Shown here: one piece after another, positions 1,842 through 2,270 of the stretch
How positions within the stretch are numbered: the stretch's first letter is position 1
Layout of the letters: each line of letters opens with the position of its first letter
IMG/VR virus record: IMGVR_UViG_2534681912_000006
DNA: 7,092 bases
Direction: 5' to 3' (one strand)
From: a virus
Lineage: Duplodnaviria; Heunggongvirae; Uroviricota; Caudoviricetes
Notes under the pieces: generated by a model
The model's input: only the letters and a program-made list of their open reading frames with translations
The model's database searches: none
What the model was told of the DNA's origin: nothing
Position numbers and translations under genes: made by a program

Positions 1842-2232
1842 ATACATATCTGGATTATCACTTGTTACGGTAAAAAGTGATTGCTTACTGTTTTTGTGAG
1901 TGGCATTGCAGCAGCCGGATAATGTCAGTGCTGGCTGACGGTGTGCTGGTGGCGGGTGTGGTGGTTGTTGCTTTCCCGTTGCTGAAAAAGAAAACGCCAG
2001 ACTGTTAGCCGGGTATCAGTTAGCGGGAGAAATTTTTAAATACTTCACAATTCAGGCGGTTGACTGTTGTCTGGTTTGCGGGGAGTTTGTTAAAAGAAAC
2101 TGGCATGGTGAATCCCCCTGTGCGGAGGGGCAATCAGCGAGTAGGTATATGGGATAATCGCGGATTCAGGTGCTGGTACTGAATTCACCGGGAGGCACCC
2201 GGCACCATGCAATGGCACATAGCGCCACTCTC

Positions 2233-2270
2233 CAGCCCCTCTCCGGAGGGGCTGTTTATATTGATTTTGT
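2233..2270 (+). terminator. Intrinsic terminator (plus-strand orientation)
   Basis: Perfect 9-bp stem CAGCCCCTC/GAGGGGCTG with 4-nt loop TCCG (2233-2254), followed by the T-rich tract TTTATATTGATTTTGT. The upstream flank is not A-rich, so it is unidirectional for the plus strand. Confidence 0.65.

Follow-up and report, generated by a model that had tools for sequence, protein, structure and literature searches.

RNAs of the STnc100 family (RF02076) lie directly 3' of stx2 in Shiga toxin phages and are bound by Hfq; the function of the family has not been established. Several members have an experimental record. EcOnc05, which is encoded in prophage Sp4 of E. coli O157 Sakai, was recovered by Hfq crosslinking and detected by Northern blot, and its crosslinking (CRAC) peak extends from the variable region over the linker and reaches the terminator's 5' arm (PMC4104026). 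EcOnc27/sRNA103, located 3' of stx2B, is bound by Hfq and, when overexpressed, increases the transcript levels of fimZ and espA. In strain EDL933, there are 11 STnc100 copies, 10 of them with reads in the RNA-seq table of the study concerned; STnc100_4 was positive in a Northern blot, and STnc100_10 is the case of an ORF-like footprint. The PasD1 and PasD2 RNAs of EPEC E2348/69, which resemble STnc100 in several respects, are Hfq-dependent (Pearl Mizrahi et al. 2021; Zhu, Shabalina and Storz 2026 preprint).

The stretch of DNA analysed here (the window, 7,092 nucleotides) contains a full-length member of this family. The STnc100 model matches positions 2074-2263 of the plus strand over model positions 1-206 of 206, with a cmscan score of 132.4 bits (E 7.7e-30) against a gathering score of 47 bits. 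Positions 2132-2166, in the variable region, are the reverse complement of the EcOnc05 Northern probe (Tree et al.; PMC4104026), and the sequence of Sakai prophage Sp4 agrees with the window at every position of 2046-2253. The RNA is an already catalogued prophage sRNA, real but ordinary. Its expression and Hfq binding may be carried over, by analogy, from the identical variant EcOnc05 and from PasD. A sequence-only reading of the locus had suggested that the roughly 390 bp between an upstream ORF and a terminator could encode an sRNA. This is correct for 2074-2263, an STnc100 member whose variable region is identical to the target of the EcOnc05 probe. The 390 bp are not all taken up by the RNA, which starts at about 2103 according to the mapped 5' end of PasD2 and a comparison of promoter signals.

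The window copy, with its full-length match of 132 bits to the family model, has the same terminator hairpin as the Sakai members (EcOnc05, EcOnc06 and EcOnc27/sRNA103). These also occupy the same accessory-gene insertion site, 3' of Q and the tRNA genes and 5' of the esterase and lysis genes. The flanks differ. Upstream, the window has a truncated DUF3927 ORF, whereas stx2B or tRNAs are found in Sakai. Downstream, it has a convergent iraM gene, in contrast to AsxR in VT2-Sakai and other hairpin-containing sequence in Sp4. The terminator tails are also different, UUUAUAUU in the window and UUUCUUAU in Sp4. AsxR is found with 88 bits at the corresponding site in VT2-Sakai; in the window, neither AsxR nor AgvB gave a match at E values up to 1, and iraM fills the site. 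A convergent pair as described by Tree et al. 2014, with an AsxR/AgvB-class RNA of 51-60 nt abutting the STnc100 3' end, is absent.

With respect to PasD1 and PasD2, the similarity extends to the gene order (TerB-like or hypothetical gene, DUF3927, sRNA, esterase/holin), the 5' start sequence GCAUGGUGAAUCC, the promoter layout, and the architecture of P1, P2, pseudoknot and P4. PasD2 itself lies 41 nt after a DUF3927 gene and scores 41 bits against STnc100, under the cut-off. On purpose-built covariance models, the PasD RNAs reach 32-36 bits, compared to 99-105 bits for the core in the window. The P2 loop and P5 are reduced in PasD, and the PasD linker has about 50 nt and a UGUGAG seed, whereas the 22-nt linker of the window, AAUGGCACAUAGCGCCACUCUC, lacks UGUGAG. 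By sequence, the copy in the window clearly belongs to STnc100 and is not a PasD.

Elements of this type are common. They are present in 2860 of 5426 complete E. coli genomes, and more than 10 further genera of Enterobacterales have loci with the element. Prophages of Enterobacteriaceae carry them, as do some sites that appear to be chromosomal, and they sometimes form tandem arrays (3-5 copies). For the window, little changes by adding another copy of an RNA family that is found in about half of the complete E. coli genomes. For work on the STnc100 family, the useful points are a probable start inside the Rfam model, the linker as the likely seed, and a pseudoknot that is supported by covariation.

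Genetic context of the locus

The window is the late region of an E. coli lambdoid prophage. The gene order is Q antiterminator, terminator-like hairpin, tRNA genes, accessory ("moron") genes, esterase and lysis genes. The STnc100 element is flanked by Q, tRNAs, esterase, holin and endolysin. The hairpin 3' of Q resembles a terminator and stands at the site where Stx phages carry the late leader terminator. Phage mEp460_ev081 is 99.2% identical to the window over 1842-2211. The end of an IS3-family element breaks the Q gene at 187/188, and antitermination is therefore probably unavailable in the window. The esterase gene is frameshifted. With Q split by an IS and the esterase out of frame, the prophage looks degraded.

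The ORF that precedes the locus, 1488-1841, is present as the sequence-only reading had listed it, with a TTG start. It matches phrog_2873 with 234 bits. NCBI PGAP leaves it unannotated in a genome that is 100% identical over 1400-2700 of the window (E. coli SCU-172 is a strain with such identity), and a tblastn search of phages with this candidate ORF gave mEp460_ev081 as the sole match. NCBIfam had no match for this ORF, the DUF3927 ORF, or an IS-encoded OrfA fragment.

Downstream of the sRNA, an iraM-like anti-adaptor gene lies in convergent orientation at 2289-2624 on the minus strand (NCBIfam NF007393, 162 bits, and PGAP annotation). Its stop codon is 27 nt past the sRNA tail. Such an iraM gene is found on the opposite strand at 27 loci, mostly at a fixed distance from the STnc100-type element.

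It is correct that 1842-2270 contains no ORF of at least 60 codons on either strand; the longest ones have 50 aa (minus) and 46 aa (plus). The description of the stretch as non-coding applies in part, the exception being 1877-2008, which PGAP annotates as a DUF3927 family protein. The stretch is not one non-coding unit. It consists of two known units, the remnant of a DUF3927 gene and an STnc100 sRNA, and both matches are beyond chance, with a full-length Rfam match (E 7.7e-30) in the 3' half and a Pfam match (E 1.7e-27) in the 5' half.

A terminator scan of 900-3100 found 5 terminator-like sites, compared to 1.9 +/- 1.2 in shuffled sequences. Elsewhere in the window, a PasA/AgvB/AsxR-type RNA was considered for the spacer between the esterase and DUF1378 genes (4846-4996) and rejected, as this spacer has neither PasA homology nor a Rfam-level match.

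Core, linker and terminator of the RNA

The structured core of the sRNA comprises 108 nt, 2103-2210 on the plus strand, according to covariance models, covariation and the minimum free energy (MFE) fold. It is closed by helix P1 (2103-2110 with 2203-2210) and contains P2 (CCCC 2114-2117 with GGGG 2127-2130), P4 (2162-2169 with 2179-2186) and P5 (2188-2192 with 2198-2202), all of them on the plus strand and part of the MFE fold. P2 is the short hairpin that had been noticed at about 2113-2128. It is present at 2114-2130, some 2 nt away, and is the near-invariant P2 stem-loop of STnc100. In addition to these nested helices, there is a pseudoknot on the same strand, in which nucleotides 2133-2139 (a, AUCAGCG) after P2 pair with 2171-2177 (a', UGCUGGU) in the P4 loop.

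The structure is conserved in related prophages, with compensatory changes, which was a test that the sequence-only reading had put forward. In 102 distinct sequences, 91.4% of the cells in the nested helices are paired, and 20 of the 25 pairs have changed on both sides. The covariation of the nested helices is 0.346, compared to 0.162 +/- 0.006 in shuffled alignments (reached in 0 of 500) and at most 0.09 when the partners are slid against each other. For the pseudoknot alone, the value is 0.469, compared to 0.199 +/- 0.017 for shuffles (0 of 500) and at most 0.141 for slid partners. Permutation tests with helices found separately in each sequence gave 0 of 2000 for the pseudoknot and 0 of 2000 for P4. 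P1, P4 and the pseudoknot all show covariation. The core pseudoknot, in which the P4 loop pairs with nucleotides just 3' of P2, is a new result; it is not in the Rfam STnc100 structure line, and no mention of it was found in a limited look at the literature. Counting of pseudoknot pairs on a plain MAFFT alignment (A1) was dropped. On this alignment, 37% of the pseudoknot and 65% of the P4 cells were paired, as differences in loop length move the strands out of register. It was replaced by the per-sequence helix finding with permutation controls and by two covariance-model alignments.

The plus strand can be identified as the RNA strand, because at one P4 pair most sequences (67 of 102) have G-U, which would be C-A on the opposite strand. 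Coding inside the RNA has been suggested by a minus-strand pseudo-CDS of PGAP (2093-2218) and by the 'tatgggata' Shine-Dalgarno sequence of the RIBOseq paper. Both were rejected, since core lengths vary between 91 and 138 nt and not in multiples of three, the G-U pairs can form on the plus strand only, and a start codon at a usable distance is absent.

The near-invariant loops and the pseudoknot are unusual for an sRNA that acts by plain base-pairing, and they hint at another or an extra function. Tentatively, 2103-2210, which is common to STnc100 and PasD RNAs, may be a discrete mobile tertiary module that binds a protein or ligand or switches conformation, although we consider this rather doubtful. 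The features that point in this direction are a closing helix that starts from nucleotide +1, the near-invariant hairpins GGUGAAUCCCCCUGNGCGGNGGGGC and CACCGGGAGGCACCCGGCACC, and the pseudoknot. If so, these RNAs would be modular, with a constant structured "handle" and a swappable seed and terminator, and not plain base-pairing sRNAs.

Between the core and the terminator, a variable linker of 22 nt spans 2211-2232 of the plus strand. By analogy, this linker rather than the conserved core is likely to be the region of seed and Hfq contact: the UGUGAG seed and the chimera positions of PasD in RIL-seq data fall in the homologous linker. Across copies, the linker varies between 16 and 60 nt, and its sequence is not conserved. 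The intrinsic terminator follows at 2233-2262 (+), with a stem of 2233-2241 and 2246-2254, a UCCG loop, and the tail UUUAUAUU at 2255-2262. The strong plus-strand terminator expected here could be confirmed, with a 9-bp stem, 7 G-C pairs, and a folding energy of -20.3 kcal/mol. It is the 3' helix of the Rfam STnc100 model, and both it and the hairpin P2 belong to the STnc100 RNA. Among representative copies, 28 of 45 have a terminator within 130 nt of the core. The U-tail of the window copy is short for strong termination and Hfq binding.

The DUF3927/TciB-like reading frame

The 5' part of the locus contains a small plus-strand ORF of 43 aa, 1877-2008, which begins with GTG 1877 and belongs to the DUF3927 (PF13064) or TciB-like family. 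It scores 95.6 bits against Pfam DUF3927 (E 1.7e-27; gathering score 25 bits), matches phrog_1470 ("TciB-like"), is named WP_000562553.1 by PGAP, and has the conserved motif SRIMSVLADGVLV.G..V....P..K. The mini-ORF that had drawn attention to the locus, from ATG 1922 to TAG 2008 with the 28-codon product MSVLADGVLVAGVVVVAFPLLKKKTPDC, exists and is the 3' part of this longer ORF. The 28-aa peptide alone reaches 58.3 bits over profile positions 26-53 of 53, and by this alignment it corresponds to the predicted second transmembrane helix and basic tail, or the C-terminal half, of the family. The ribosome binding site of ATG 1922 had rightly been called poor, as its GGA at -5 to -3 is too close. 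A usable Shine-Dalgarno sequence is absent for GTG 1877 as well.

Full-length homologues have 50-55 aa and two helices, and their GTG or ATG start overlaps the stop codon of a TerB-domain gene. The homology of the window ORF to these genes starts only at about 1907, so that the ORF lacks both the coupled start and transmembrane helix 1. An unrelated Cys-rich N-terminus (MIAYCFCEWHC) stands where this helix would be, and there is neither a TerB gene upstream nor an overlap of start and stop codons. A sister copy of the locus (L034) has an in-frame stop in the DUF3927 ORF, and other copies are truncated further. The ORF is thus most likely a 5'-truncated derivative of a DUF3927/TciB-like membrane-protein gene. 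The 43-aa form in the window scores higher than two-helix forms in Pfam (95.6 versus 53-60 bits), which indicates that the short form is common in databases. It may be a functional variant and not a dead remnant.

The suggestion of a type I toxin or small-peptide locus found no support; the ORF is instead the C-terminal half of a DUF3927/TciB-like protein, truncated at its 5' end. There is some likeness to type I toxin-antitoxin systems (hok/sok, ldr/rdl, ibs/sib, tisB/istR) in that a short hydrophobic prophage ORF stands beside a small RNA. In contrast to these systems, the RNA of the window is on the same strand, downstream and non-overlapping, and the ORF is a fragment of another family. 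In searches limited to known families, there was no match to a toxin family in Pfam or NCBIfam, nor to an antitoxin RNA family at E values up to 1 in the whole window.

Promoter, 5' end and competing explanations

A sigma-70 promoter of the sRNA is predicted by comparative scoring at 2067-2096 (+). It consists of a -35 element TTGTCT (2067-2072), a spacer of 18 nt, an extended -10 TGt (2088-2090), and a -10 element TAAAAG (2091-2096). The predicted start is 2103 +/- 2, for an RNA of about 160 nt. Transcription would then probably begin with the first nucleotide of P1, some 30 nt into the Rfam model, whose initial 30 or so positions (2074-2102) are probably promoter DNA and not part of the RNA. 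The comparison was based on 31 copies with mutually unrelated upstream sequence. In these, the promoter score peaks where the -10 hexamer begins 13-14 nt before the TGGTG anchor. The mean score at the peak is 8.5, compared to 5.5 +/- 1.0 elsewhere, and strong matches are present there in 32% of the copies, while control windows have them in 3% or fewer. The homologous G is where the 5' end of PasD2 has been mapped. In the window, the -10 element lacks the conserved final T, the -35 element has 4 of 6 matches, and a simple promoter scan did not call the promoter at 2067-2096.

We consider it quite probable that the locus comprises a truncated DUF3927 gene and a free-standing gene for an STnc100-family sRNA, with its own sigma-70 promoter and terminator. 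As extrapolated from EcOnc05 and PasD, the sRNA would be transcribed in the lysogen, independently of late-gene antitermination, and Hfq would bind its 3' part. By analogy, the variable linker might base-pair in trans with host or prophage mRNAs, and the conserved 5' core, paired from nucleotide +1, could be a constant stabilising or scaffold module.

An unlikely competitor is that the RNA is a stable 3' fragment, processed from late-promoter, tRNA or accessory-gene transcripts, with the AU-rich stretch 2031-2044 as the cleavage site and the core and terminator as protection. This would account for RNA sizes in EHEC Northern blots (about 222, 235/247 and 187 nt) that exceed the promoter-based prediction. 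The size of EcOnc05 (about 222 nt, versus about 160 nt predicted from 2103) and the position of the EcOnc13 probe, which hybridises 5' of the predicted start, at -47 to -13 within the proposed promoter of an Stx1-phage-type copy, indicate that longer, 5'-extended or processed species exist in EHEC. The imperfect -10 and -35 elements of the window also fit with processing, as does the fact that E. coli-type copies become homologous from about 2036-2046 onwards, roughly 60 nt 5' of the core. An alternative upstream promoter for the 222-nt species (CACAAT 2046-2051; TTAAAT at about 2036) was considered and not adopted; it has no conserved -35 element, and the homology block starts exactly there. 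However, Sp4 of Sakai has a strong terminator after the tRNAs, about 65 nt before the core, which leaves little upstream transcription for processing, and Q is disrupted in the window. Moreover, copies from other genera without shared upstream sequence keep TTGACn, 17-18 nt and TAnnnT in register, the 5' end of PasD is the first base of the core, and an RpoD ChIP-exo signal has been reported at Salmonella STnc100 promoters (PMC10794520).

Two further explanations would shift the function away from a trans-acting RNA. SroA and SroG turned out to be prematurely terminated leaders, and the pseudoknotted core could likewise be a cis leader, riboswitch-like or a conformational switch, with the terminator as expression platform. 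The core does look like an aptamer, with near-invariant loops, a pseudoknot, and a peripheral hairpin that varies, and it could be that P4 and the pseudoknot form as alternatives and not at the same time. Of the 45 representative copies, 17 have no canonical terminator in the following 130 nt, and for several of these (L030, L031 and L037), a scan for downstream ORFs lists a start codon with a Shine-Dalgarno-like sequence 37-44 nt past the core. The downstream genes are mixed, however (esterase, two kinds of small holin-like protein, a putative lipoprotein, or none), and form no consistent class. In the window, iraM follows in convergent orientation, which makes cis control impossible. PasD and EcOnc RNAs are abundant, Hfq-dependent and engaged in trans chimeras via the linker, and tandem arrays better match families of sRNA genes. 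A leader is therefore quite improbable. We regard it as very improbable that the locus acts mainly via a membrane peptide of 28-43 aa (1877/1922-2008), type I toxin-like or TciB-like with an effect on cell division or on resistance to colicins, with the RNA as an incidental product or 3' UTR. The ORF does belong to a real, widespread and PGAP-annotated family, and its hydrophobic helix followed by KKK resembles small membrane proteins. DUF3927 frames are found upstream of STnc100-type elements on the same strand at 48 loci, and at 46 of them they end 51-130 nt before the anchor, so the two are linked. Yet the window ORF is without helix 1, without the GTGA-coupled start behind a TerB gene, and without a usable Shine-Dalgarno sequence at GTG 1877 or ATG 1922, and the reading frame is broken by a stop in the sister copy and shortened in others. 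No toxin family or antitoxin RNA (Sok, Sib, Rdl, IstR and others) was detected in the window at E values up to 1, and the RNA downstream has its own promoter signal, in a constant position.

In a machine-learning study of O157:H7 isolates, sequence variants near the stx2 STnc100 were associated with haemolytic uraemic syndrome. They are located at +90 and +103 after stx2B, positions that would fall in the extended -10 element and the discriminator of the predicted promoter.

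STnc100 identity of the candidate sRNA

The sequence-only reading described 1842-2270 as a terminator-capped non-coding stretch that might encode an sRNA or a small peptide, and all the elements that it listed are found in the sequence. All ORFs that overlap the stretch are shorter than 60 codons, the small hairpin lies at 2114-2130, and the terminator has a 9-bp stem with 7 G-C pairs (2233-2254), followed by UUUAUAUU (folding energy -20.3 kcal/mol). The observation is real and correctly placed, but already known. An Rfam scan of the whole window in E-value mode gave one strong non-tRNA match, STnc100 (RF02076), at 2074-2263 on the plus strand (132.4 bits, cut-off 47, E 7.7e-30, model positions 1-206 of 206). 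The first internal hairpin of the model corresponds to the small hairpin, and its 3' helix to the terminator. By sequence, the candidate sRNA belongs to STnc100 and represents the variant known as EcOnc05 in E. coli O157 Sakai. The reverse complement of the EcOnc05 Northern probe (Tree et al.), AATCAGCGAGTAGGTATATGGGATAATCGCGGATT, equals window 2132-2166 exactly, window 2046-2253 is found unchanged in the Sakai prophage Sp4, and the EcOnc05 Hfq-crosslink peak in Sakai corresponds to the variable region, linker and terminator 5' arm of the window RNA.

RNAs of this type are widespread and have been detected experimentally. The 211-bp element (2060-2270) is present in 2860 of 5426 complete E. 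coli genomes, in up to 12 places per genome. EHEC EDL933 has 11 STnc100 copies, of which 10 have reads in an RNA-seq table, one is confirmed by Northern blot, and one, STnc100_10, has an ORF-like ribosome footprint (PMC5331693). In O157 Sakai, STnc100-type RNAs were recovered as EcOnc sRNAs by Hfq UV-crosslinking; their genes lie behind the late promoter PR', where accessory ('moron') genes are inserted, and frequently face the short anti-sRNAs AsxR and AgvB in convergent orientation (PMC4104026; review PMC7873438). EcOnc27/sRNA103 lies 75 nt after stx2B, and its overexpression leads to higher fimZ and espA transcripts. A 2026 preprint relates the EPEC sRNAs PasD1 and PasD2 to STnc100.

With an exact pattern for the region of helix P2, we recovered further copies at 32 loci in genomes representing their species, and in at least 120 viral contigs of IMG/VR. 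Among the genomes are those of Atlantibacter, Enterobacter, Citrobacter, Klebsiella, Leclercia and Trabulsiella, as well as Erwinia, Phytobacter, Franconibacter, Lelliottia, Superficieibacter and Rosenbergiella. According to covariance models, several prophages carry tandem arrays of 3-5 STnc100-like cores (loci L073, L032, L008, L033, L010, L042 and L017, and L003 at 1695-2269), typically spaced by about 230-260 nt, with some arrays wider. The arrays in genome loci come from Leclercia and Superficieibacter, the rest from IMG/VR viral contigs. Phage vB_EcoS-813R8 has two strong and one weak STnc100-like copy before iraM.

Helices, pseudoknot and linker

The RNA core spans 2103-2210 on the plus strand. 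It is closed by P1 (2103-2110 with 2203-2210) and contains P2 (2114-2117 with 2127-2130), P4 (2162-2169 with 2179-2186) and P5 (2188-2192 with 2198-2202), all of which, together with the terminator, are present in the minimum-free-energy fold of 2103-2262. Conservation of the RNA structure among relatives, on which the sequence-only reading had partly hinged, is borne out by covariance-model alignments and permutation tests, in which both the nested helices and a pseudoknot covary. In an alignment of 115 matches (102 distinct sequences), 91.4% of the cells of the nested helices are paired, and 20 of 25 pairs have changes on both sides, including all pairs of P1 (8/8) and P4 (8/8). The covariation score is 0.346, compared with 0.162 +/- 0.006 for shuffles (reached by 0 of 500) and at most 0.09 with slid partners.

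The strand after P2 (2133-2139, AUCAGCG) can pair with the P4 loop (2171-2177, UGCUGGU), and a variable segment separates this strand from P4. Among copies the two strands change together (CUGGUG/CACCGG, ACUGGAUA/UAUCCAGU, CCAGUUA/UAACUGG, AAGCCA/UGGCUU, CUGACC/GGUCAG), with 37 distinct helices in 45 representatives. The own-partner score of the pseudoknot is 5.92, whereas permuting the partners between sequences gives 4.14 +/- 0.17 (5.92 reached by 0 of 2000); for P4 the two values are 7.2 and 3.62 +/- 0.22. In a second model alignment, the pseudoknot alone scores 0.469 for covariation (shuffles 0.199 +/- 0.017, 0 of 500; slid partners at most 0.141), with just 63% of cells paired because the register varies. 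P4 and this helix interleave, and would either coexist as a loop-to-strand pseudoknot or replace each other as alternative pairings. The pseudoknot is absent from the Rfam STnc100 structure line in the cmscan output, and the word does not occur in the 2026 PasD preprint. What we add here is a covariation-supported pseudoknot, a revised 5' end, and a modular reading of the RNA as a constant core with a variable seed.

The modular reading concerns the 22-nt linker between core and terminator (2211-2232, plus strand). For PasD, the RIL-seq seed UGUGAG and the chimera coordinates fall in the corresponding linker, which joins P1 to the terminator. By analogy, the window linker, AAUGGCACAUAGCGCCACUCUC, is a candidate seed, and the core would be the constant module. 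The linkers of the copies are 16-60 nt long and not conserved, and a canonical terminator lies within 130 nt of the core in 28 of 45 representative copies.

On the minus strand, PGAP annotates a partial 'hypothetical protein' pseudo-CDS at 2093-2218, antisense to the core. Most likely this call is spurious and was carried over from the annotation of other genomes, because the G-U pairs are plus-strand-specific and the helices covary.

Predicted promoter and 5' end, and rival readings

The upstream sequences of the copies are unrelated across lineages, yet contain a sigma-70 promoter (TTGACn, 17-18 nt, TAnnnT) in register, with the -10 hexamer beginning 13-16 nt ahead of the TGGTG anchor motif of the copies. 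In a set of 31 copies whose upstream sequences are dissimilar from one another, promoter scores are on average highest at offsets -14 and -13 (mean 8.5, versus 5.5 +/- 1.0 elsewhere), and 32% of copies have a strong match there, versus at most 3% in control windows. In the window, the signal predicts a -35 element TTGTCT (2067-2072), an extended -10 TGt (2088-2090) and a -10 hexamer TAAAAG (2091-2096) on the plus strand, and hence a start at about 2103, the first base of P1. This agrees with two independent observations. The 5' end of PasD2, placed at NC_011601 position 741157 by RNA-seq coverage and Northern size, is the homologous G of GCAUGGUGAAUCC, preceded by TTGACT, 18 nt and TAAAAA, and RpoD ChIP-exo signal is reported for Salmonella STnc100 promoters (PMC10794520). 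With the predicted start at this point, some 30 positions at the beginning of the Rfam model are therefore probably promoter DNA. Longer species also exist in EHEC, since EcOnc05 has a Northern size of about 222 nt (PMC4104026) and the EcOnc13 probe maps to -47 to -13 in a Stx1-phage-type copy.

Such Northern sizes suggest that the window sRNA could be processed from longer transcripts. However, four observations favour an independent gene: the promoters stand in fixed register, the PasD 5' end falls at the homologous position, a terminator precedes the Sp4 copy, and Q is broken in the window. The aptamer-like appearance of the core, and terminator-less copies with a start codon close behind, also suggest a cis-leader or riboswitch, but the genes downstream of the copies are heterogeneous, and the next gene in the window is convergent. 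The independent sRNA gene is the reading that we prefer.

Some cores have no obvious prophage context (L031 5998-6127, L025 4364-4476, L037, L015). The Citrobacter copy lies 122 nt past a long ORF and the Klebsiella copy about 1 kb past a homologous one; we take this ORF to be a dipeptidyl-carboxypeptidase (dcp)-like gene. Several of these cores are terminator-less, with a Shine-Dalgarno-like sequence and the ATG of a small lipoprotein-like or membrane ORF within about 40 nt.

Polymorphisms reported to be associated with haemolytic uraemic syndrome are located at +90 and +103 after stx2B (PMC12711010). By our coordinates for VT2-Sakai (L002, about 1544-1558), they fall in the extended -10 and discriminator of the inferred promoter, just before the core start at 1559, which suggests that they could change sRNA expression.

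A probable DUF3927 fragment and the prophage setting

The 28-aa peptide of the sequence-only reading (ATG 1922 to TAG 2008) is encoded as described, with poor Shine-Dalgarno spacing, but is nested in a 43-codon GTG-start ORF (1877-2008, plus strand) that matches Pfam DUF3927 with 95.6 bits; the 28 residues alone score 58.3 bits (profile positions 26-53 of 53). PGAP calls the ORF a DUF3927 family protein, and the PHROGs family label is TciB-like. Full-length relatives have 50-55 aa, two hydrophobic helices, and a GTG or ATG start overlapping the stop of a TerB-domain gene (PF05099, 60.5 bits). The window ORF, in contrast, is homologous to them only from about 1907 onwards and has an unrelated N-terminus, IAYCFCEWHC, and the window contains no TerB gene. 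By sequence comparison, the 5' half of the region is most likely a truncated DUF3927/TciB-like gene, and the mini-ORF a fragment of a known small-protein family. A sister copy (n=1) has an in-frame stop. A type I toxin finds no support, as Pfam/NCBIfam and Rfam searches of the window found no known toxin family and no known antitoxin RNA. A same-strand DUF3927 frame precedes the STnc100-type core in 48 loci, ending 51-130 nt before the anchor in 46 of them, and the order matches in EPEC, where 41 nt separate DUF3927 from PasD2. The two are a conserved pair, but separate units.

The window is a late region from a lambdoid prophage of E. coli. Window 1400-2700 has 100% identity to several complete genomes of this species, such as SCU-172, and 1842-2211 has 99.2% identity to phage mEp460_ev081. 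The Q antiterminator gene (259-981) is followed by a terminator-like hairpin with a T run (1062-1081), a tRNA with anticodon CAT (1125-1200; tRNA-Met by ARAGORN, tRNA-Ile by PGAP) and tRNA-Arg(TCT) (1301-1375). Q is probably inactive, because an IS3-family element is inserted in its 5' end. Window 1-187 is the end of this element, annotated as 'IS3 family transposase' at its matches, which number 23,359 places in 3,606 complete E. coli genomes and lie on plasmids as well as chromosomes. Homology to SCU-172, whose Q gene begins at the equivalent of window 160, starts at 188, and the 187/188 junction is absent from every complete genome in the collection searched. Immediately 3' of Q, 982-1088 contains a short leader and the intrinsic-terminator-like hairpin; in Stx phages this site holds the late promoter PR', the terminator tR' and the StxS sRNA. 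The sole RNA family signal there is a weak, sub-threshold Trp_leader (25 bits, E 0.08).

Convergent with the sRNA is an iraM-like gene (2289-2624, minus strand; NF007393, 162 bits). IraM is an anti-adaptor that stabilises RpoS. An opposite-strand iraM occurs in 27 loci, mostly at a fixed distance from the STnc100-type element. The first strong hairpin past the iraM stop on the minus strand is the sRNA terminator hairpin, which has no U-tail on that side.

A DUF1737/SASA, sialate-esterase-like gene follows (2870-4845), and then DUF1378, DUF826-like, holin and endolysin genes. The esterase gene is split at about 3047 by a 1-nt deletion relative to SCU-172 (CACCACACCTG to CACCCACCTG) into overlapping ORFs (2870-3061 and 3052-4845), whereas SCU-172 has one 1962-nt CDS. 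Adjoining its stop codon, the minus strand of 4846-4912 has a 10-bp inverted repeat (GCCGCCAGCA ... UGCUGGCGGC) and U7, which together resemble the terminator of a transcript that would converge on the esterase gene. The site occupies the position of PasA in EPEC, with no PasA sequence homology and no Rfam match. On the other side of the region, the plus-strand ORF 1488-1841 (TTG start, 117 aa; 108 aa from ATG 1515) matches phrog_2873 with 234 bits. It is left unannotated by PGAP, and mEp460_ev081 is the only phage record with a match; the 17 copies in the collected loci are all at least 97% identical.
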